Below are positions 1,290 through 29,462 of a stretch of 40,869 nt of DNA, in pieces. Every line of letters begins with the position of its first letter. Positions within the stretch are counted from its first letter, which is position 1. Made by a program: the position numbers and the translations under genes. Origin of the DNA: a virus (lineage: Duplodnaviria > Heunggongvirae > Uroviricota > Caudoviricetes); the IMG/VR virus record IMGVR_UViG_2541047754_000003; one strand, given 5' to 3'. The notes under the pieces were generated by a model. The model made no database searches, was not told the origin of the DNA, and worked only from the letters and a program-made list of their open reading frames with translations.

Positions 1290-1772
1290 CTATCTTGTCA
1301 GGGTGTCATACTGTTTTTCGCAGACTCTTCCGGCTTCGGCTGCCCGGTCAGCATACTCTGCCAGTTGTCTGTTTCTCTCGAGAGATTTGCTGAGCACGTC
1401 GGCAAGCAAAACTCCGGTGTCTGCGGCTGACGTCCCAGCGCCGACAATGGCGTTATACTGCCTGAGCTGCTCACGGATGGCAAAGAGTTGTTGCTGCAAC
1501 CTGCCAGCGCGAGCGGCAGCATCAAGAGCATCATTGCGCGCCTGGTCGATTCTTTGCTGCGCTTCACGTTCATTGGTCACTTTCTCCTGTTCGTAGTACT
1601 GACGAACTTTGTCTTCTTCGTCTTTGCGGTCTTCTTCCGCCTGCGCATACCCGGCATCGTACTGGCGACTACCGTGTATATTCCAGGCAACCACTCCGAC
1701 GATGAACAGAGCAGCAAGCATCACCACGATAACCAGTTGTTTCCAATATGCTTTTACGAATGCCCAGATCAT
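1290..1772 (-). CDS. Rz-like i-spanin (inner-membrane spanin subunit)
   Basis: N-terminal TM helix followed by charged coiled-coil; 4-nt overlap with endolysin stop; last gene of lysis cassette. Confidence 0.75.
1298..1573 (-). CDS. Rz1-like o-spanin lipoprotein, fully embedded in the Rz gene in another frame
   Basis: ATG at 1573 with AGGAG upstream; signal peptide with lipobox LALAGC; Pro-containing mature part; embedded architecture as in lambda Rz/Rz1. Confidence 0.7.
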   Translation of the reverse strand: MNVKRSKESTRRAMMLLMLPLALAGCSNNSLPSVSSSGSITPLSALGRQPQTPEFCLPTCSANLSRETDNWQSMLTGQPKPEESAKNSMTP

Positions 1773-2398
1773 ATAGCCAGCACCTTACTGGCAGTGACGT
1801 ACCGCGCGCGCCGGTCGTCGATGCCGTTCCGGCCACCATTGATAATCAGAGTTACACGTACAATATCTCCGGTATACTTCATGCAGCCTTTGCTGGAGAA
1901 GAACCAGGCCGCGCTACGAGCCGCGTATTCGTCCTGTGCCAGCAGTTCAGGATTCTCCAGCAGGTCCACTTTCAGGCCGTTTCCGCAATCACGATAGTTA
2001 TTCAAACCGGTAATCTGGATAAGTCCGCGGCCACGGTAATTCCAGCCATCGCCGGGGGCATTGTTCCCCATGCGTTTGCTGTACACCAGATTGGCAATCG
2101 CTCGCTGGCGCTCGAGTGGCAATGGTGGTTCACCAGCATGGCGACCCAGTGCATTAGCCTGCCCCTGAGTGAGACGCCCAGCCCGAACGAAGTTAGCCAG
2201 TCCGCTGACACTGTAGTTGAAATTCTCCTGCAACCTGGTGAAGCCCCCAGACTCATGCCCGACTTGGGCAATAAACATTGCCTGATCTTCTGCTTTGCTG
2301 ATACCAAACTCTTTCATCGCAGAAGTTATATGCGAGAACCAGCGTGCGGCCAGCGCCTCGCTAATACCAGCAGCTCGCTGGAATTGTTTAATCTCCAT
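1769..2398 (-). CDS. Endolysin, glycoside hydrolase family 19 (chitinase-like lysozyme)
   Basis: Start reassigned to ATG 2398 (MEIKQFQ...) rather than upstream extension; motif [12 protein letters not shown] typical of GH19 endolysins; sits between holin and Rz. Confidence 0.85.
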
Positions 2399-2696
2399 GT
2401 TTAGACCTCGATATTTTGAAAATCTGAACAACGTTACCGCGTGTTTTAATAACCGCGGCAAGCATGACAGCGTTGATAATGACCTCAGATAAATCCACAG
2501 CCATTGGCGTGCGTAACCAGATTGCATAGACGACACGAACAGGAATACTGGCCGCAGCAACAATAAGGAAATAAGCAAGCCACCCTCCCCATCTTCGATG
2601 TTGAGAGCCGTTACGCCGGAATGTGACAACGCGAATTGCTATGCCAGTACAAATAACTGCATTGGTGATAAGCAAAAAAAACTCATGCGTTACCAT
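2388..2696 (-). CDS. Holin/antiholin-like small membrane protein
   Basis: 102 aa with 2-3 predicted TM helices; overlaps endolysin start; lysis cassette position. Confidence 0.6.
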
Positions 2697-3087
2697 CGTC
2701 TTTTCTCCCCGGAATTAAATCGCGTGGATTGTCTGAACGGTGGTAGAGCCATATACCAATACGCACAGCGACAATTGCTGACACGAATGCGCCAGCAGAG
2801 AAAACAATCCCTTTTTCAAAAGAGTCCTGCGTGATGGTAGGGATCAGGCTGGCTATGCCGATAAGAATTGATGCTGCTGGTTTGTAGAAAAGAAGTCCAC
2901 AGAGAAAGCTAAGCATCGATAAGAGTACGCGACGATGAATTGGGTACTCTACCGCAGAGGTAACAAAAATTACCGCACCAGCAAGAGCACCGAGCGCCAC
3001 CTCTGGCGGAACGCCTACGATAACTGCAGCAAGAGAGCTCACACTAAGCCATTGATTTAAAGAATCAGTAGTTAGATGGGCTGACAT
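2683..3087 (-). CDS. Putative holin (multi-TM membrane protein)
   Basis: About 134 aa from first ATG (ORF track starts at GTG 3096); several hydrophobic helices; first gene of lysis cassette after tailspike. Confidence 0.6.
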   Translation of the reverse strand: MSAHLTTDSLNQWLSVSSLAAVIVGVPPEVALGALAGAVIFVTSAVEYPIHRRVLLSMLSFLCGLLFYKPAASILIGIASLIPTITQDSFEKGIVFSAGAFVSAIVAVRIGIWLYHRSDNPRDLIPGRKDDGNA

Positions 3088-3316
3088 AATGAACACCGTT
3101 TATTACGCATAACAATCTCCTTACTATTGAAGATTCACACATAATAAACCATTTAAGGATAATAGTTACCTCAAAACGCTGTATTTCTACCTTCTACGGC
3201 AATGAAAATTTCGTTCAGAAAATGGTCTAGTGTACCTCTCAGTCACAATTAAAGAAGAAAGAAGCCGAACTTACTTCGTAATAAGCAAGCCGGCTACTAA
3301 GATTAATCCTCAATAT

Positions 3317-6526: not shown

Positions 6527-6560
6527 ATTTAAAGGCCGCAAGAGCGGCCTATCGTTTCGC
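6525..6560. terminator. Bidirectional intrinsic terminator between convergent genes
   Basis: Hairpin GGCCGC-AAGA-GCGGCC flanked by AAATTTAAA on one side and T-rich tract on the other. Confidence 0.5.
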
Positions 6561-7277
6561 TTTGTGCTCATCCCAGCACGTTTTGCACCATGCCATTAAG
6601 CCGTCCGCATTTTGATTATTAGGGTAAAAGCTGGTTCGTTTTCTGCGGACATTACAAATTGGGCACCACTTCATATGGCGTGTATTCTTTGGGCCATCGA
6701 GACACCTTGCACACCACTTAGTCAATCCATCTGGATTTTTTGACGATTTCCTGAATTTTTCATATGGAAGGTTTATTCTGCATCGCAAGCACTGCTTGCT
6801 ACCACTTGAAACTCTGTTAGCTGATTCTTCTTTTGGCGGCGATGCAGAAGGTATTCTTGCTGGCTCTGATACTGCCTGAGGTGCTTTTTTAGATGACTGA
6901 GACGATATGTCATCACCAGGGAATCTTCCATGATATGCCGGACGCGTTGACACTCCAGGTGGAAGCTCAGCTGTAAACGGCTTTGGCTGAATCAGTTGCC
7001 TCTCTTTTGCTAACTCCTGCTGTTTATAATATGTCTGGATTACCGCACTATCATAAGCAGGAGGTGCGGAAATATTAGGCGCATTACCTCCAGTTTTTTG
7101 AAACTGAGTAGAGGTGTGTTCTATCACCTGTGTACGATTAATCGTTATCTCCCCATCTTCGGTCTTTATCGTTTTGTTATGATTAACGACCGTACGATCA
7201 GAGATCTTAGTCTTGTTCTGGTTGATAACGTAAATAATCACCGCAACCACACCAACAACTATCCAGAAAACTTCCAT
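6549..7277 (-). CDS. Membrane-anchored protein with two C-terminal Cys4 zinc-ribbon modules; function unknown
   Basis: ATG 7277 with GAGGA RBS; N-terminal TM helix; Pro/Ser-rich linker; two C-x2-C...W-C-x2-C modules. Confidence 0.6.
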   Translation of the reverse strand: MEVFWIVVGVVAVIIYVINQNKTKISDRTVVNHNKTIKTEDGEITINRTQVIEHTSTQFQKTGGNAPNISAPPAYDSAVIQTYYKQQELAKERQLIQPKPFTAELPPGVSTRPAYHGRFPGDDISSQSSKKAPQAVSEPARIPSASPPKEESANRVSSGSKQCLRCRINLPYEKFRKSSKNPDGLTKWCARCLDGPKNTRHMKWCPICNVRRKRTSFYPNNQNADGLMAWCKTCWDEHKAKR

Positions 7278-7405: not shown

Positions 7406-7496
7406 ATTTACATCGCACTCCTCTTGTGCCATAGTAATCGGGCACTGGATTTTGCCAGTGCCGGGATTGGCGTCCCGGGTTACTACAGAGGCACAT

Positions 7497-7518
7497 ATGC
7501 CGCATAAGCGGTTTTTTT
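7497..7518 (+). terminator. Weak intrinsic terminator or attenuator in the ant leader
   Basis: Short GC stem (GCCGC/GCGGT) with loop ATAA followed by seven T; preceded by two stable hairpins at 7442-7478. Confidence 0.35.
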
Positions 7519-7671
7519 ATGTGTAAAGCGCACCTATTCTATGGTGGGCTGTGTGGGGGCACCGAAAGGTGCGCCGGGTCCTTTGTAGCCGGTTACGCCA
7601 ACCCTGCACAGTTCACCACCAACCGATTGGCGTCGGTAGTGGTGATTAACCTAACTACAAAGGTGATCACT

Positions 7672-8358
7672 ATGACTGCTAACGTAACCCCATCTGTTTT
7701 TCATTTTGAATCAGAGGCAACCATTCGAGCCATTGTTATTGATGGAAATCCTTGGTTTGTTGCCAAAGACGTTATTAAAGCTCTTCAACTGACAAACCCC
7801 ACTATGTCAATAAAATCTCTTGATGATGATGAAAGGGCTAAATTTAACTTAGGCCGTCAAGGCGAAACCAATATTATCAACGAGTCAGGCCTCTACACAC
7901 TGATCCTCCGCTGCCGCGATGCGGTGACACCAGGCACTATCCCCTACCGCTTTCGTAAATGGGTTACAGGTGAGGTTCTTCCTCAGATCCGCCGCACCGG
8001 AAGTTACATTAAAAACTCGCTCCCGCAGGAAGAACGCATAAAGATGGTTGCCGACCAGGTAGCCAACGCCACGGCGTCAGCAGTAATGCAGGCGATGAAG
8101 ATAGAGAACAAAACCTACAGTGCCCCGCTGAAGCCCGGCTACCGCAGCCTGATTCACTCGCCGTCTGGTGTTCTCGGCCTGACGGAGAACTCACTGCTGA
8201 TGAATCTGCTGAACCAGTTACAGGAAGACGGGCACGACGTATCGGGCGCGGCGGCAGAGCTGACCACCATGTTCTGCTACATCGTCGGTGTGAGCAAATG
8301 CCTGCGTGATATCCAGACGCACGCGGAGTACATCAACGACAAAGCAGGATTCTTCTGA
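7672..8358 (+). CDS. ant: Antirepressor (BRO-N-like N-terminal domain plus Ant C-terminal domain)
   Basis: ATG 7672 with AAGGTGA RBS; N-terminal FHFESEATIRAIVIDGNPWFVAKDVIKAL resembles BRO-N antirepressor domain; upstream part of ORF-track ORF is structured leader. Confidence 0.8.
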   Translation: MTANVTPSVFHFESEATIRAIVIDGNPWFVAKDVIKALQLTNPTMSIKSLDDDERAKFNLGRQGETNIINESGLYTLILRCRDAVTPGTIPYRFRKWVTGEVLPQIRRTGSYIKNSLPQEERIKMVADQVANATASAVMQAMKIENKTYSAPLKPGYRSLIHSPSGVLGLTENSLLMNLLNQLQEDGHDVSGAAAELTTMFCYIVGVSKCLRDIQTHAEYINDKAGFF

Positions 8359-8506: not shown

Positions 8507-8686
8507 ATGCGAAACGAAAAATTGCAGATGCGTAGAGCGCAAGCTGCCGCAAGACGTTCTTTCAATGGAAGCGTAGAGTGCGTAAAAGTTACTATGACAA
8601 AAGATCACGCAAGTCGCGTATCCCGCGCTTTCTTTGATTCTCGTAACAATAAGGAAAATTATGAGTTCGTCTGCGTCGCAGAATGA
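8507..8686 (+). CDS. Small ORF (59 aa) overlapping the next gene; candidate antitoxin or partner protein
   Basis: ATG 8507 with GAGGT RBS 6 nt upstream; 26-nt overlap with the 8661 gene; one codon below the ORF-track length cutoff. Confidence 0.4.
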   Translation: MRNEKLQMRRAQAAARRSFNGSVECVKVTMTKDHASRVSRAFFDSRNNKENYEFVCVAE

Positions 8687-9206
8687 TAAAAATCAAATTG
8701 TCAGATATAAGGGTCGAGTATTGCATACGCAAAATTTCTCGGCCCTTTGTGCATCTGATCTTGAGCTGAAGAAAGTATCTGATGCCTTTACCCAGTATTG
8801 GAAAACGGGATACCATCCATCTCTTGGTAAAGATGCTGCATTTGCTCGTCCGACAGAAATGCTTAAACTAAATGTCAGGCATACTCATGTCGATAACCAA
8901 GACTATATTCCAGAAGATAGTGATAAAAAACACACTGGTAAAAAATCATCTTGGGATGCATGGAAAAATATAGCGTCTGTGCAAGTAAAATGCATACCAA
9001 CAAGTGATTGCTTTTTAGTTTATTCGGTAAATCACAATCGTGATGCGCTGGTTATGTTTTTTGTTGACGCAGATGCCCACAACATAACTGAGCAAGAAGA
9101 GTTTAAAGAGGCAGCAATCACTATCAGTTATCAATTCTTTGAGAAAACAAAAACAGAACCAATGCCTTTAGAAGAAGATCTTTTTTCTGATAAATGGAAG
9201 GAATAA
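8661..9206 (+). CDS. Hypothetical protein with YafO-toxin-like motifs (possible ribosome-dependent mRNA interferase)
   Basis: ATG 8661 with AAGGA RBS; motifs D-F-x-Y-W-K-x-G-x-P..GKDA, H-T-H-V and D-C-F-L-V-Y recalled as similar to YafO; not confirmed by search. Confidence 0.5.
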   Translation: MSSSASQNDKNQIVRYKGRVLHTQNFSALCASDLELKKVSDAFTQYWKTGYHPSLGKDAAFARPTEMLKLNVRHTHVDNQDYIPEDSDKKHTGKKSSWDAWKNIASVQVKCIPTSDCFLVYSVNHNRDALVMFFVDADAHNITEQEEFKEAAITISYQFFEKTKTEPMPLEEDLFSDKWKE

Positions 9207-9228
9207 GCCCGCGTTGCGGGCTTTTTTG
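9206..9228 (+). terminator. Rho-independent terminator
   Basis: Stem AGCCCGC/GCGGGCT, loop GTT, followed by TTTTTT. Confidence 0.7.
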
Positions 9229-9262
9229 TGTCTGCGGATTCCCGCCCGGGCGGCGGTGGCAT

Positions 9263-9291
9263 TCGTTAAAAACAAGGCCGCGAAAGCGGCC
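9263..9291 (-). terminator. Rho-independent terminator ending the leftward virion operon segment
   Basis: Hairpin GGCCGC-TTTC-GCGGCC followed by TTGTTTTT on the minus strand. Confidence 0.6.
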
Positions 9292-9292
9292 T

Positions 9293-9304
9293 GTGACATG
9301 TCAC
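9293..9304. repeat. 12-bp perfect palindrome GTGACATGTCAC (copy 1 of 3)
   Basis: Identical copies at 26576-26587 and 28842-28853, all at gene 3-prime ends bordering the late operon. Confidence 0.6.
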
Positions 9305-9311
9305 GCTCACG

Positions 9312-9452
9312 TTATGACAAGCCTATGTACCCTGCTACACCAGATAATATCAAAATAACTGCAACAGCAAATTCGCCATCGTCAATGATACATTTACGGT
9401 TCATAACGCCAAGTGCAACAAGCGCAAACACAACAAGAATAAAAGCAATCAT
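9312..9452 (-). CDS. Small hydrophobic protein (46 aa, two predicted TM helices)
   Basis: ATG 9452 with AGGA RBS (taAGGAtgagaaATG); not in ORF track (below 60 aa); directly follows the 824-aa virion protein gene. Confidence 0.45.
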   Translation of the reverse strand: MIAFILVVFALVALGVMNRKCIIDDGEFAVAVILILSGVAGYIGLS

Positions 9453-9461
9453 TTCTCATCC

Positions 9462-11936
9462 TTATTGCGGAGTGACATCCTGTGGTCGCCACCAGTATGT
9501 CTGGTTAAACTCTTTCTTCGAACGTTGCTCCATTTTACGCAAATAGCCTGGTGAAAAATACTCCTGCATCTGGTTAAAGATCATGTGATCGAGAGCCGCC
9601 TTTAAGTACCAGAGATTCGCACCTGGCATCAAACCTTTCCCCAGCTTCACCAGATCACCACCAGTCTGCTCACTCTTCCCTTCCACAGCATTTAACGGTA
9701 TGCCCTGAGCAATCTTCACTACGTCATCAACCAGACCAGCTACCGGGCCAAGCATCGACGCCAGCGCGCCGCTTCCGTACCTAGTGTGATCTGACAATAA
9801 AAAGTCACCGTAAAGGCCAAGACCACCACCTTTCAGTAGAGCACCAAGCCAAAATTTAGCAGCATCTTCTCCTGTCATCTCGCGAGGATTACGACCAGAC
9901 GCAAGGTCGTTAAGTTGCTGCGACAAAGCGCCAAGAATGGTCGTACTGGCAATAAACGTCGCAATATATGCCGCACGCCCACCAGCAGACGGCATACCCA
10001 TAGCGCGTGACCAGTGACGCATAACTACCGAGATAGGGAACGATTTAAACAGGAAAACACTTCTCGTTAATTCACCTTTCCATGTTCCACGCTGAATACC
10101 AGAACCGGTTATCAGTTGCTCACGTGCTCCCGGTGTAATAACAGCCATATCAACTTCTTCAGTTACGGCACCGAGAAGTTTACGCATTGCCTCAAATTTC
10201 ACGCGTTCAGGCTCACCAAGATGTTTAACTGCTGAATCAGGGATACGCATAATGCTTTCCGGTGTCAGCATCGTATTATTGCCGTTCCCCCAGTCCTCCT
10301 GTTGCGCCAGCTTCCATACGCTCCAGTCTGTTTCAGTAATCCCTTTGCTTTTCAGGATACGAAAATCAGAGTCATCGAGGCTACGAAGGTCTGGTGTCCG
10401 TGACACTACCTCTCCCAGGCTTCCCATCATTGTTACGCCATAGGCGCGCTTGTGCGCATCTGACCATGCTGTAAGCCCACTGGCACGCATTACCGCCGTT
10501 GCCGCCCAACGAGACACAGACGGCCCCATATTATCCATTGCCCAGCGGTTAACACTGCCAAGTAGAGATTCCATCGCCAGACCAGCGCGGCGCGCCCGCG
10601 CAAGCTCAGTACGGTTCGTTGGGTCCATAGCTTCAAGCTGGTTGCGGAATAACTGGTTCATTGGAAGGTTGGTCACCTTCGCAGACAGATACATGGTTCC
10701 AAGATCAGAGAACGATGACAGCAACGCGGATCCTAGTCGGCTGGCAACCAGCCAGTTGCGGATATTGTCAGACCAGCGCGCGATGTGCGGATTCGCTACA
10801 GGCTGTGTCTTTCCGGAAATAAAGTTGTACAGATTCTCTGTGTTGTTCGCCAGCCGCTCGACTTTACCGGTTTTACTCGGGTTAGCTGTTGCCGTTTCTG
10901 CCTTCACCTGATCAAGAAGAGAGCGGAAAACATGATCGGGGTTTGGGCCATATGTTTCCACCAGTGCAATATCTTTACTGATACCTTCCAGGTGACCGAC
11001 CATGATTTCCCATAGAGAGCGATCGCCATAAAGTTGCTGATATTGCAGATAGGAATCTGCATCTTTGAAATGTATCTGTCGTGATGCATTACCCCGGTTA
11101 GCACGTGCGCCGGAAATTCGCATTCCGGTATCAGTAAGCTTATTCAGCCCACCAGTAGCGATCGTGTTATAAGCCTCTCCAAGAAATGCAGACAACTCGG
11201 CATCGTTCATCAGTTGTCCATCGACTCGGGTATAATATTTGCGATCCAGCTTACCTATAACATCGCTAACCCACTTATCCTTTGATACCGCCCCAACCTT
11301 TTCCATAGAATGATGTTGAGGGATCCCCCAGTTTTCGAGATAGCCAATGTCCCCACCAGCATCATTAAACCGGCGGCGCAGTAGCTCTGTCACTTCTCTC
11401 CACGCCTTAGCACCTTTTCTTGCTTTAGCATTGCCAGTATTTTGCCCTCGCATTTCATATACCAGGTCACGCACGCCAGCTTCATCTTCAAACAGGCCAA
11501 AAAAGCGAGGATCAACTGCTTCAAATGCCTCCTGCAATTGACTCAATGCATAATCACGAGTGGCTTTTGTTCTGGATTCAACAGAGAGGAAATTCGATTT
11601 ACCGTCTGCATTAAAAGCAATAGTACGGTTAAGAGCGCCAAGTTTCCCATCAGCCCCTTGATAGCTATTGATAAATTTATCCAATCTCTGACGTGCGGCT
11701 ATAGTGAGAGCCACACGACGTTTCTTTAATGCCGCTTCTCGCTGTAATTCTTCAGATGCCAATTGTGCTGCACGATACAACCGTTCTGATTCGGAAAGTT
11801 GTCGCCACGACATCGGATCATCACGAGCAATGGAGCGCATATTTCGATAAATGCGGTCTTCAATGTTCTGTATTTCTCGCGCCGTTAACGTGCGCTGCGC
11901 CGCCTGCTGGACCGCTTGTATACATTCCTGTCTCAT
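9462..11936 (-). CDS. Large internal virion/ejection protein (824 aa)
   Basis: Long ORF in collinear structural operon after capsid and tail genes, as in podovirus ejection-protein modules. Confidence 0.7.
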   Translation of the reverse strand: MRQECIQAVQQAAQRTLTAREIQNIEDRIYRNMRSIARDDPMSWRQLSESERLYRAAQLASEELQREAALKKRRVALTIAARQRLDKFINSYQGADGKLGALNRTIAFNADGKSNFLSVESRTKATRDYALSQLQEAFEAVDPRFFGLFEDEAGVRDLVYEMRGQNTGNAKARKGAKAWREVTELLRRRFNDAGGDIGYLENWGIPQHHSMEKVGAVSKDKWVSDVIGKLDRKYYTRVDGQLMNDAELSAFLGEAYNTIATGGLNKLTDTGMRISGARANRGNASRQIHFKDADSYLQYQQLYGDRSLWEIMVGHLEGISKDIALVETYGPNPDHVFRSLLDQVKAETATANPSKTGKVERLANNTENLYNFISGKTQPVANPHIARWSDNIRNWLVASRLGSALLSSFSDLGTMYLSAKVTNLPMNQLFRNQLEAMDPTNRTELARARRAGLAMESLLGSVNRWAMDNMGPSVSRWAATAVMRASGLTAWSDAHKRAYGVTMMGSLGEVVSRTPDLRSLDDSDFRILKSKGITETDWSVWKLAQQEDWGNGNNTMLTPESIMRIPDSAVKHLGEPERVKFEAMRKLLGAVTEEVDMAVITPGAREQLITGSGIQRGTWKGELTRSVFLFKSFPISVVMRHWSRAMGMPSAGGRAAYIATFIASTTILGALSQQLNDLASGRNPREMTGEDAAKFWLGALLKGGGLGLYGDFLLSDHTRYGSGALASMLGPVAGLVDDVVKIAQGIPLNAVEGKSEQTGGDLVKLGKGLMPGANLWYLKAALDHMIFNQMQEYFSPGYLRKMEQRSKKEFNQTYWWRPQDVTPQ

Positions 11937-23257: not shown

Positions 23258-23550
23258 TCCTGTTCACTGGCCTCTTTGGCCATCTTCAAATACTGTTCAG
23301 GGCAATGCGCCATAACGCGCTGAAACAGTTCCAGCGCCAGATTGCGTTGCCCCTCATTAAATGCCATTGCCATAGCATCCATCGGAGAGATAGCGGAAAA
23401 CACCCGGCCTTTCTCCAGCACCGACCAGACAACGCGACGCCCCTGTTCACTGCTCATGACAAAGCGAATGTCATCAATTTCACGCTGTGCCATGTCACGT
23501 TGCTTACGGGCGTTTTCTTCTTTCAGTTGATCGTCTTCGTAATCTGTCAT
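23254..23550 (-). CDS. Hypothetical protein (98 aa)
   Basis: ORF with ATGA overlaps to portal and scaffold genes. Confidence 0.55.
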   Translation of the reverse strand: MTDYEDDQLKEENARKQRDMAQREIDDIRFVMSSEQGRRVVWSVLEKGRVFSAISPMDAMAMAFNEGQRNLALELFQRVMAHCPEQYLKMAKEASEQE

Positions 23551-25874: not shown

Positions 25875-25951
25875 GTGGCATTAGCTCAGTTGGACAGAGC
25901 AACCGCCTTCTAAGCGGTTGGTCGCAGGTTCGAATCCTGCATGCCACGCCA
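25875..25951 (+). tRNA. tRNA-Arg (anticodon TCT), phage-encoded
   Basis: 77 nt; 7-bp acceptor stem GTGGCAT/ATGCCAC, D-arm TAGCTCAGTTGGACAGAGCA, anticodon loop CTTCTAA, T-arm GGTTCGAATCC, 3-prime GCCA; acceptor stem differs from E. coli argU as I recall it. Confidence 0.9.
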
Positions 25952-25994
25952 GAATCACGCCTAAGGACCGTGATGCCAGAAGTTCCAAGGGCTT

Positions 25995-26037
25995 GGCGGT
26001 GATGGTTTCCCTTGAAGGACTATCACCGCCCTTTTTA
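25995..26037 (+). terminator. Putative terminator after tRNA
   Basis: 9-bp stem GGCGGTGAT/ATCACCGCC with large loop, followed by CTTTTTA. Confidence 0.45.
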
Positions 26038-26114
26038 CAGCAGGACGCCATTGCGATGACTTCATGCTGTAAACCAGTACAGCCACGGAAGGCATAACTC
26101 ATTGCTTCCAGTTC

Positions 26115-26138
26115 GCCCGGTTCGCCGGGCATTTTTTT
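26115..26138 (+). terminator. Rho-independent terminator abutting the RBS of the downstream gene
   Basis: Stem GCCCGG/CCGGGC, loop TTCG, followed by seven T; RBS AAGGTGAG and ATG 26150 follow directly. Confidence 0.6.
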
Positions 26139-26149
26139 AAGGTGAGATT

Positions 26150-26572
26150 ATGAAGACAATTGATATGTTGGCTAAGTATCTAAATGAATGGCCATTAAAA
26201 TATTCTCGTATCGTTCAGGCTGAAGACTGCGTTTTTTATGGCGTTTTTGCTGGTAATGAAATGCATTACGAAGTAATTCAGAGTGAGGGACTGACCGGGT
26301 TAACTCTTAGCGAAGACCATGGTACTAGCGTTACGTTCCATGACTGGATAACAGCACAACGTTCTGAAATGGAAAAAGGCGATGTGTTTGATATTTCTCG
26401 CTCTGTATACGCCAAAGAAAAAAGTGATGATGATTACATGCGCGAAAACTTATACAACATGAAGTTACAATGCCTGGCTGAAGTGCTTAGTAAAAGATCT
26501 TTACTTGATGTGGTTGGTGCTGAGCAGGACGCCAAGGCAATCAACGCCGCATTCGATAAAATAACCTTCTAA
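26150..26572 (+). CDS. Hypothetical cytoplasmic protein (140 aa); cargo gene downstream of tRNA
   Basis: ATG with AAGGTGAG RBS; antisense to flanking terminase and portal genes; terminator downstream. Confidence 0.65.
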   Translation: MKTIDMLAKYLNEWPLKYSRIVQAEDCVFYGVFAGNEMHYEVIQSEGLTGLTLSEDHGTSVTFHDWITAQRSEMEKGDVFDISRSVYAKEKSDDDYMRENLYNMKLQCLAEVLSKRSLLDVVGAEQDAKAINAAFDKITF

Positions 26573-26575
26573 CGC

Positions 26576-26587
26576 AGTGACATGTCA
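26576..26587. repeat. 12-bp palindrome GTGACATGTCAC (copy 2 of 3)
   Basis: Exact copy 4 nt after the stop of the cargo gene. Confidence 0.6.
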
Positions 26588-26591
26588 CAAA

Positions 26592-28841: not shown

Positions 28842-28853
28842 GTGACATGTCAC
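28842..28853. repeat. 12-bp palindrome GTGACATGTCAC (copy 3 of 3)
   Basis: Exact copy overlapping the stop codon of the 28850-29188 gene. Confidence 0.6.
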
Positions 28854-29188
28854 ACTATTAATTTCGTTTCATGCCAGCCTTTAGTCACCCAGCATTGCGA
28901 GTCACCATTACACGGGCATGAATTAACTGGAACTCTCTCGCCGCACTTACCGCAACGTTTTCTGCTGATCGATTTTATACGCCCGCGCACGCGTGCATCA
29001 TCCTGGCGGATCAGTAACGCTATATACTCACCAAATTCGTAAGGCGCACGCCCGGGGCGACGCGTGGCACAGTTACGCTCCAGCATTTCAATTTCCTGAG
29101 CATCAAGCACAATCTCCAGCTTACGCACACCAGATGCAGCTTGTCTGGCTCTCTGAGCGGCTTTGCGCTCTGCTGCTGATTTAGCCAT
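28850..29188 (-). CDS. Zinc-ribbon protein (112 aa), candidate regulator
   Basis: ATG 29188; basic N-terminal helix and C-terminal Cys cluster C-G-K-C...C-P-C...C; last gene before terminase. Confidence 0.55.
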   Translation of the reverse strand: MAKSAAERKAAQRARQAASGVRKLEIVLDAQEIEMLERNCATRRPGRAPYEFGEYIALLIRQDDARVRGRIKSISRKRCGKCGERVPVNSCPCNGDSQCWVTKGWHETKLIV

Positions 29189-29462
29189 CAATATTTACCT
29201 TTATCGCGAACACCTTTACCGGTTTATCACCGAAGTGCGGATGTGTGATTGTCTTGATTTCATATCCGTCATACGGGACGTCAATTCTTCGGCTGGAATC
29301 GTCGCGCTTCGGATATCCCTTTGTGATAATCAGGCGGTCATACTCCCGGAACATAATTCGCTTATTCCAGTAGTCATTACACAGGCGATACTCTTCCGTT
29401 TTCTCTCCACGAATCATGGCATCGAAGTATTCACCTTTGACGGCAAGTTGCAGGTTAGCCAT
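29181..29462 (-). CDS. ASCH/PUA-like (DUF3850-like) protein
   Basis: ATG 29462 with GGAGG RBS; N-terminal pattern KGEYFDAMIRGEKTEEYR resembles ASCH-type domains (from memory). Confidence 0.5.
   Translation of the reverse strand: MANLQLAVKGEYFDAMIRGEKTEEYRLCNDYWNKRIMFREYDRLIITKGYPKRDDSSRRIDVPYDGYEIKTITHPHFGDKPVKVFAIKVNIDG

Follow-up and report, generated by a model that had tools for sequence, protein, structure and literature searches.

A 46-residue membrane protein gene at the end of the virion operon of a phiV10-like podovirus and the variable slot that it occupies

Between the last ejection-protein gene and the terminator of the virion operon of a temperate podovirus lies a minus-strand reading frame of only 46 codons. 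This raises the question whether such a short frame is a gene at all, whether it was described before, and what a small membrane protein encoded at this place might do. The window, i.e., the whole stretch of DNA that was analysed, comprises 40,869 nucleotides (IMG/VR record IMGVR_UViG_2541047754_000003) and belongs to an epsilon15/phiV10-like temperate podovirus of E. coli, genus Uetakevirus; over most virion genes it is 96–98% identical to phiV10, PAS61, HEMP4 and phiv142-3. As detailed below, the gene itself is already catalogued as a hypothetical membrane protein and is an ordinary object. The present analysis adds firm support from evolutionary comparison for the reality of the gene, together with the insight that it sits in a slot that is occupied by different small membrane protein genes in related phages.

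A short gene between the ejection-protein gene and the terminator

The reading frame, identified from the ORF list and the sequence, is located at 9312..9452 on the minus strand, starts with ATG, ends with TAA and encodes a two-helix membrane protein of 46 residues (MIAFILVVFALVALGVMNRKCIIDDGEFAVAVILILSGVAGYIGLS); the minus-strand sequence 5' of its start is TAAGGATGAGAAATG. The upstream gene (9462..11936, minus strand) encodes an 824-residue virion/ejection protein, p20 in phiV10, which is a homolog of gp17 of epsilon15 and matches the family phrog_684 (‘virion structural protein’) with E = 0. Gp17 of epsilon15 was assigned as a T7 IVP-D/gp16 homolog (Hardies et al., PMC4819975, Table 2). The gap between the stop codon of the 824-residue gene and the start of the small frame is 9 nt. 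A Shine-Dalgarno motif, AAGGA (9463..9459, minus strand), precedes the ATG by 6 nt and shares bases with the TAA of the upstream gene (9464..9462), an arrangement which indicates that translation of the small gene may well be coupled to that of the 824-residue gene.

On the other side, a perfect 12-bp palindrome, GTGACATGTCAC (9293..9304), follows 7 nt past the stop codon and directly abuts the intrinsic terminator of the head-tail-ejection operon (9265..9292, minus strand), which consists of the stem AGGCCGC-TTTC-GCGGCCT (9292..9275) and a T-run (9274..9265), with TGTTTTT after the stem. The same terminator is annotated in the records of phiV10 and epsilon15; the sequence of the stem differs between lineages, most of which retain the hairpin. 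As context only, the convergent terminator of a YafO-like accessory gene (8634..9206, plus strand) lies at 9205..9233 on the plus strand. The small gene is the last cistron of the Uetakevirus head-tail-ejection operon, and the placement given in the initial annotation, at the end of the virion operon between the last ejection-protein gene and a terminator with a palindrome adjoining, agrees with the sequence.

The initial annotation had named conservation of the frame in homologous phages as the check for this gene. The analysis was carried out on 51 related loci from IMG/VR and from phage and genome records, which contain 26 distinct intact nucleotide versions. In these 26 alleles variable sites are distributed over codon positions 1, 2 and 3 as 25, 9 and 40, and the mean pairwise dN/dS is 0.25, with values of 0.12–0.19 for the copy of the window compared to the Salmonella and Citrobacter alleles. 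Across the 26 alleles no stop codon occurs in the sense frame and four of the five other frames contain 2.4–5.3 stops per sequence; the exception is the antisense frame that shares the wobble positions, for which the ratio is 0.17 with 0.12 stops per sequence. The positions of start and stop are fixed, the loop motif of the protein is conserved in the sense frame, and every lineage has an SD-like motif (GGAG, GAGG or AAGGA) at an unchanged distance. L127 and L128, the two alleles that diverge most, have changes at 31 of 34 synonymous sites, i.e., these are saturated, yet retain 63–65% amino acid identity, the start position and the SD-like GAGG/GGAG. In about 8 of the 51 copies a frameshift or a changed C-terminus is seen. 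The frame is thus conserved in homologous phages, which argues that the gene is real, and the description as a real gene with a good ribosome-binding site holds.

Alternatively, there might be no gene at all, the frame being either a chance ORF or the by-product of selection that acts on the other strand or on an RNA structure. This reading takes its support from the wobble-sharing antisense frame, which also looks constrained, and from an ORF of 110 codons on the plus strand (9214..9546). However, an antisense signal of this kind is the mirror artefact expected from a conserved sense frame, and the plus-strand ORF was rejected as the source of the signal on this ground; it starts with TTG inside a terminator and reads across the palindrome and the two terminators, and some alleles interrupt it. 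The fixed start and stop, the conserved SD, the retention of the loop motif at saturated synonymous divergence and a confidently predicted fold likewise stand against a non-coding origin, which is hardly credible. Taken jointly, it can be stated with high confidence that the minus-strand frame 9312..9452 is a true coding gene and an ortholog of p21 of phiV10.

The gene had been introduced as unannotated, which is not correct. The protein corresponds to PhiV10p21 (YP_512275.1) with 98% identity, for which the record reads ‘putative integral membrane protein; two predicted transmembrane helices’, and SPC32H_019 and the equivalent genes of SPN1S, 65FD and 66FD are the same gene. An identical protein is present in E. 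coli VR50 (RefSeq WP_000559990.1), where the DNA is 100% identical over 9270..9480, and the protein of phage PAS61 is 100% identical as well. Among the PHROGs the sole significant match is phrog_7892, a family of unknown function, which covers residues 1–46 of 46 (E = 5.5e-33). As in the PhiV10p21 family, the gene comes after an 824-residue gp17-like gene and is followed by the palindrome and the terminator. It was missed by first-pass ORF tracks only through the length cut-off.

The family is small. A word-indexed search of 5.8 billion proteins resulted in 42 clusters of 74–98% identity, and every source name given among these belongs to the Enterobacteriaceae (E. coli, Salmonella, Citrobacter) or to their close relative Hafnia. 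When 1.84 billion representative proteins were searched with a profile, only 6 clusters of the family were returned, which provides no link to any characterised family, and a scan of the GTDB species representatives resulted in one locus, in Citrobacter braakii. Even the most distant member, a protein of 45 residues (P0046), is again encoded 10 nt after an 824-residue gene. By these searches, the family has very few members and is restricted to this place in Uetakevirus prophages. Regarding its function, Pfam, NCBIfam and PADLOC gave no significant label, the sole Pfam match being DUF5367 below threshold (E = 0.089), and no superinfection-exclusion, defence or holin model of Pfam, PHROGs, NCBIfam or PADLOC matched. 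As a single gene it matters little, i.e., it is a correctly placed hypothetical membrane protein.

The two transmembrane helices proposed earlier are supported by structure prediction and by hydropathy. AlphaFold2, run with the family alignment, predicts a helical hairpin with helices at residues 2–19 and 25–45 (mean pLDDT 93), in agreement with the hydrophobic stretches at residues 1–19 and 25–46 and a GRAVY value of 1.78. All charges are found at positions 19–27 and the C-terminus (...GVAGYIGLS) is uncharged. Since R19 and K20, both in the inter-helix loop, are the only basic residues, the positive-inside rule suggests that the loop is cytoplasmic and that both termini are outside. The topology would be N-out/loop-in/C-out, placing the most conserved segment, NRK-x-II-x-DGEF, in the cytoplasm. 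The conserved core of the family extends from the inter-helix loop into the first part of helix 2, (N/E)RKG(I/V)I..(E)F..A.V..L.GVAGY.G. A Foldseek search with the predicted hairpin returned from the PDB generic helical hairpins only, none at E ≤ 0.001, and from BFVD only the own family.

A polymorphic slot and its palindromic boundary

The position after the gp17-like gene was surveyed in two collections of 80 loci each, for which the C-terminus of either the phiV10-type or the epsilon15-type gp17-like protein served as anchor; 157 of the loci were usable. In 150 of these 157 (~96%), the start of a small hydrophobic ORF is found −12 to +30 nt from the stop codon of the gp17-like gene. These ORFs split into at least seven unrelated families upon single linkage of BLAST matches. 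The largest, found in 39 loci, encodes proteins of 57–60 residues with two transmembrane helices from a GTG or TTG start and is followed by a 98-residue protein with four transmembrane helices (phrog_3075). It is followed in number by the epsilon15 gp18-like family (57–64 residues, 38 loci), in which start and gp17 stop have 1 or 4 nt in common, and by the family of the window itself (46–48 residues, 28 loci) with its 9-nt gap. Further families comprise proteins of 104 residues (16 loci), of 90–113 residues (9 loci), of 41 residues with one transmembrane helix and followed by a 126-residue lipoprotein (phrog_3716) as in phage ZX5 (8 loci), and of 62–92 residues resembling gp19 of Tyrion (8 loci); the remaining four loci carry one singleton each.

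The 57-residue ORF is conserved between E. coli prophages and the Klebsiella phage BUCT711, where it starts with TTG and shows 11 replacements, most of them conservative. It is absent from the annotation of the deposited BUCT711 record. PHROGs provide function-unknown families only, for the 46-residue protein, the 98-residue protein, the lipoprotein and gp18, and nothing for the other slot families; the 57-residue GTG/TTG-start, 62-residue, 91-residue and 104-residue slot proteins are in none of the family libraries queried. The predicted topologies vary among the families, some being N-in/C-in with charged tails, which argues against one mechanism common to all of them; the slot proteins may not all work alike. 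It is the position and not the sequence that is conserved, and the 46-codon gene is one among several occupants of an almost universal and highly polymorphic slot. As far as we know, this wider pattern is the new part of the analysis. No mention of the 46-residue protein or of the palindrome was found in the literature, and the papers on the phiV10 reporter phage and on ZX5 are silent on the gene.

Several observations suggest that the gene is exchanged as an accessory cassette. The 80 loci with 97–100% identical gp17 C-termini (last 250 residues) carry different cassettes. Between E. coli and Salmonella alleles the synonymous divergence of the 46-codon gene is 0.29–0.41, compared to ~0.72 in the adjacent 824-residue gene, and this lower value fits a more recent exchange of the cassette. 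Moreover, the GC content is 38% (GC3 30%) in the small gene compared to 49.5% (GC3 45%) in its upstream neighbour. Differing cassettes beside identical gp17, lower synonymous divergence and lower GC3 together argue for an accessory, horizontally exchanged gene that does not co-evolve with the ejection protein. A deeper positional conservation tied to IVP-D was considered and rejected: in eight distant phages with an IVP-D-type gene (MPK9, YeP5, vB_EcoM_APEC, BcepC6B, QH, Acinetobacter 4316, Skadi-4 and Komp_PA14_gP) no small hydrophobic ORF follows this gene, and a tail-fibre, a convergent or another non-hydrophobic gene comes next. The slot therefore belongs to the accessory region of Uetakevirus between the ejection genes and the tailspike gene. 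The lack of the slot in these distant relatives and the different cassettes beside near-identical gp17 argue for an accessory rather than a core morphogenetic gene.

In the lineages that keep it, the slot ends at the GTGACATGTCAC palindrome, and in many lineages the slot genes end at or inside this element. The window contains three exact copies (9293, 26577 and 28842) and one copy with one mismatch, where 0.08 would be expected by chance. The exact copies are located 0–7 nt after a stop codon and 1–45 nt before a terminator hairpin. The copy at 9293 follows the slot gene on the minus strand, the copy at 26577 follows an accessory gene (26150..26572, plus strand) and shares the bidirectional terminator of the large-terminase gene, and the copy at 28842 follows the gene of a 113-residue regulator (28850..29191) just upstream of the small-terminase gene. 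In phiV10, SPN1S, epsilon15 and Tyrion the first two sites are conserved, with adjoining hairpins that vary and an invariant palindrome. At the slot, it is present downstream of unrelated cassettes in 123 of 138 loci and missing from some of the more divergent epsilon15-type lineages. The TGA inside the palindrome is the stop codon of epsilon15 gp18, of the 98-residue protein and of the ZX5 lipoprotein. As unrelated slot genes stop at this TGA, the cassette-specific sequence ends exactly at the left edge of the palindrome, and this element is the fixed boundary of the variable slot at its 3' side.

Of 5426 complete E. coli genomes, 461 (~8.5%) contain the module of palindrome plus terminator and only 54 the 46-codon gene. 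The GenBank record of phiV10 is linearised at the centre of the third copy of the palindrome (...GTGA before and CATGTTAC... after the break). The operator of the epsilon15 ‘repressor’ was rejected as the identity of the palindrome, the annotated motif, ATTACC-N5-GGTAAT, being different. Candidate roles for the palindrome are protein binding in connection with termination, the marking of a recombination boundary or a function related to packaging.

Expression and possible action of the membrane hairpin

In the 300 nt upstream of the gene no match to the sigma-70 consensus of at least 8 of 12 positions is present in the window or in the Salmonella and Citrobacter types, although such consensus scans are weak evidence. 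The same scan was negative in four of six related lineages; a weak or unconventional promoter might escape scans of this kind. A promoter embedded in the 3' end of the 824-residue gene was considered and dropped, as no consensus match was obtained there; the synonymous divergence in the last 50 codons of this gene is 0.52–0.69 compared to ~0.72 overall, which is a slight dip only. The gene is co-oriented with the operon, its SD lies on the preceding stop codon, no sigma-70-like site precedes it and a terminator follows. For these reasons the simplest reading is that the protein would be made only with the late proteins, as product of the last cistron.

On this basis, the best overall explanation is that the gene encodes an accessory late inner-membrane hairpin that acts on the entry of phage DNA, to which a probability of roughly 0.35 is assigned. 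The protein would be produced together with the late proteins, the hairpin would insert into the inner membrane, and it would act there on DNA entry mediated by the ejection proteins. The outcome might be a block of the superinfection-exclusion type against incoming related phages in induced or infected cells. This exclusion mechanism is a best guess and is put forward tentatively. Expression from the prophage or early during infection is the rule for the exclusion genes characterised so far. With no detectable promoter of its own and a seemingly strictly late expression, a role of the gene in exclusion by lysogens is weakened.

Alternatively, the protein could serve the ejection proteins of the same phage as a partner or ‘immunity’ factor that is made in step with the 824-residue protein by translational coupling, either to shield the inner membrane of the producing cell before packaging or to be packaged and injected as a small subunit of the DNA-entry channel. 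This possibility would account for the start being tightly coupled to or overlapping the stop of the gp17-like gene in the ~96% of loci with a slot ORF and for the family being found nowhere else, and the adjoining gene encodes a proposed component of the inner-membrane channel (PMC4819975). However, slot proteins that are unrelated to one another stand beside gp17 C-termini of 97–100% identity, so that no co-evolution of the two is apparent; distant phages with the same ejection-protein family manage without such a gene, and some of its alleles are frameshifted. The partner role is therefore doubtful. A further combination of ideas goes beyond this: the slot protein would be a hypervariable, coupled companion of IVP-D that works with or against the DNA-entry channel and is perhaps injected, the turnover of at least seven families would reflect an arms race, and GTGACATGTCAC would be a dedicated element, i.e., a protein-controlled terminator or a recombination boundary, that defines exchangeable slots here and after the large-terminase gene. 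As a joint proposal this is improbable.

If the slot proteins do control DNA entry or lysis, they would constitute a compact natural set of interchangeable alleles. Such a set could lend itself to studies of the ways in which very small membrane proteins disturb the ejection apparatus of a podovirus.

Comparison with known systems

Small hydrophobic peptides of bacterial genomes include type I toxins of the Hok, Ldr and TisB type. No Rfam family matches at the locus, and type I toxin loci stand alone with a cognate antisense RNA, whereas the gene described here is the last cistron of a long operon.

The genes called morons in lambdoid phages (a concept of Hendrix and Juhala) are closer in kind. 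A moron carries its own promoter, and gp15 of HK97 is an example of an exclusion moron. The 46-codon gene resembles the lambdoid morons in being accessory, in being replaced between close relatives, in a GC content below that of the flanking virion genes and in having its own terminator; it differs from them in that no promoter of its own is detectable and that it appears translationally coupled to the preceding virion gene. One might thus propose a classical moron for lysogenic conversion, expressed from the prophage and altering the host envelope, e.g., by inhibiting a host membrane enzyme, and the low GC content, the replacement by other genes in the slot and the terminator would suit such a gene. 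Epsilon15 indeed encodes, elsewhere in its genome, a 66-residue inhibitor of the O-antigen alpha-polymerase with two transmembrane helices (gp22, epsilon15 record). However, BLASTP of the 46-residue protein gave no alignment with gp22, the known conversion functions (oac, gp21 and gp22) map elsewhere, and the lack of a promoter-like sequence together with the mere 9 nt to the upstream gene is at odds with expression from the prophage, so a conversion moron is quite unlikely.

Holins form another group with which the protein shares a general outline. Class II holins and pinholins, and the holin-family proteins of the phage itself, are small late membrane proteins with two or three transmembrane helices, and a modulator of lysis timing, i.e., a holin, antiholin or pinholin-like protein, would fit the size, the two helices and the expression with the late genes. 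Moreover, the alternative 98-residue slot protein has a sub-threshold match to Phage_holin_5_2 (E = 0.027). A charged C-terminal tail is typical of holins, and the 46-residue protein ends in ...YIGLS without such a charged domain and matches no holin HMM. Furthermore, the phage has a complete lysis cassette on the minus strand (1290..3096), in another transcription unit, ~6 kb away and beyond the tailspike gene, which comprises a Phage_holin_8 gene (2683..3096), a Phage_holin_3_7 gene (2388..2696), a GH19 endolysin gene (1769..2404) and an Rz-like spanin gene (1290..1772); the small gene lies outside this cassette with no adjoining endolysin. The slot can also hold a lipoprotein cassette instead. 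As the lysis cassette is complete elsewhere, a holin role receives no support, and the holin-like reading of the initial annotation does not stand; the wider possibility of a lysis-timing modulator is likewise unlikely.

The analogy to superinfection exclusion holds only in part. SieA of P22, a temperate O-antigen-specific podovirus, is an inner-membrane exclusion protein that acts on DNA entry dependent on ejection proteins (Leavitt et al., 2024, PMC10883804). Like the 46-codon gene, sieA occupies an accessory region that is flanked by the last ejection-protein gene and the gene of the tailspike, so the part of the analogy that sieA adjoins the last ejection-protein gene stands. However, sieA lies on the strand opposite to gene 16, has its own annotated promoter and is expressed from the prophage, and no promoter-like site is seen for the 46-codon gene. 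SieA is also a protein of 162–164 residues (164 in the form compared) with three transmembrane helices instead of 46 residues with two, and BLASTP gave no alignment between the proteins at E ≤ 100. With sieA convergent and transcribed from its own promoter, the positional analogy is loose. Overall, the functional analogies drawn in the initial annotation are weak.

The closest counterparts are found within the genus. Gp18 of epsilon15 (NP_848226.1, phrog_29212) and the proteins of the other slot families resemble the 46-residue protein in that they are small, hydrophobic and mostly have two transmembrane helices, and their genes occupy the same slot, coupled to or overlapping the stop of the gp17-like gene; their lengths and predicted topologies differ. 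The loop KKGWLGET of gp18 and the consensus NRKGIIEDGE of the 46-residue family share a basic-Gly-hydrophobic-acidic motif. Homology of the two families is unsupported, as hhalign aligns only 11 loop columns with a probability of 2.4% and the BLAST linkage separates them. The p21 protein of phiV10 and its family phrog_7892 show the same length, the same two transmembrane helices and the same place after an 824-residue virion protein as the protein described here.

The palindrome beside the variable gene slots

The 12-bp palindrome GTGACATGTCAC is present in three exact copies in the window (9293-9304, 26577-26588 and 28842-28853), compared with 0.08 expected, and a further copy with one mismatch lies within a coding region (23487-23498). 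Each of the three exact copies is preceded by a stop codon at a distance of 0-7 nt and followed by a terminator hairpin after 1-45 nt. Among the Uetakeviruses compared, GTGACATGTCAC is unchanged and the neighbouring hairpins are variable. Moreover, variable accessory-gene slots have the palindrome as their 3' boundary. The GenBank record of phiV10 is linearised in the middle of one copy. In a divergent lineage (L127:3149-3260), the gene for a 48-aa homolog of the 46-aa two-TM protein (window 9312..9452, minus strand) is followed by the palindrome and then, instead of the terminator, by another gene; a signal peptide (MNKTALLLIALVPQVVSAAVFGG...) forms the N-terminus of its product. Therefore, the palindrome can sit between two cassettes.

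Altered alleles and the commonest alternative cassette

About eight of the 51 copies of the 46-aa gene in the related loci are altered (L130-L133, L138 and L095-L097). An allele found in four loci carries a frameshift close to the C-terminus, another is frameshifted past residue 19, and in a third, present in three loci, the stop codon is lost, resulting in an extended product of 72 aa. This shows that the gene is dispensable for prophage carriage.

In the commonest alternative cassette at this position, the gp17-like ejection-protein gene is followed by a 57-aa two-TM ORF and then by a gene encoding a 98-aa protein. The 57-aa ORF, which uses a GTG or TTG start, is found at L011:3263-3436 on the plus strand and at 2320-2493 on the minus strand of the locus from Klebsiella phage BUCT711 (L005), in the record of which it is not annotated. 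Conservation of the ORF extends from E. coli prophages to BUCT711, and no family was found for it in PHROGs, Pfam and NCBIfam.

Cargo, accessory genes and the antirepressor module

The interval between the genes for terminase and portal holds a tRNA-Arg gene (anticodon TCT; 25875-25951, plus strand), which runs opposite in direction to the late operon and overlaps the mechanically called ORF 25881..26132 (minus strand). Beside the integrase end of the genome are two cargo genes (1-516 and 532-1071, both plus strand); one encodes a DUF5384 protein and the other a glycine-zipper/TraT-like protein, for which PHROGs gives the label 'DNA methyltransferase', apparently a questionable name for the family.

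In the accessory region between the ejection and tailspike genes, a 242-aa phrog_6762 protein with two C-terminal zinc-ribbon/endonuclease VII/HNH-like repeats is encoded next to the tailspike gene (6549-7277, minus strand). A YafO-toxin-like ORF (8634-9206, plus strand; PF13957, E=1.2e-5; TTG start) is oriented convergently to the virion operon. For the same stretch in E. coli VR50, RefSeq annotates two smaller hypothetical genes, so that the stretch may encode a toxin together with its antitoxin, or may be a gene that has been disrupted.

Furthermore, Rfam identifies isrK (7442-7518, plus strand, 56.7 bits) and a C4 antisense RNA (7537-7623, plus strand, 79.5 bits) at the 5' end of a Bro-N/Ant-like ORF listed as 7519..8358. 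RefSeq places the start of this gene later than 7519, and therefore the mechanical start is probably too far upstream. Together, isrK, the C4 RNA and the Bro-N/Ant-like ORF constitute, within this accessory region, an RNA-controlled antirepressor module of the P1/Gifsy type.
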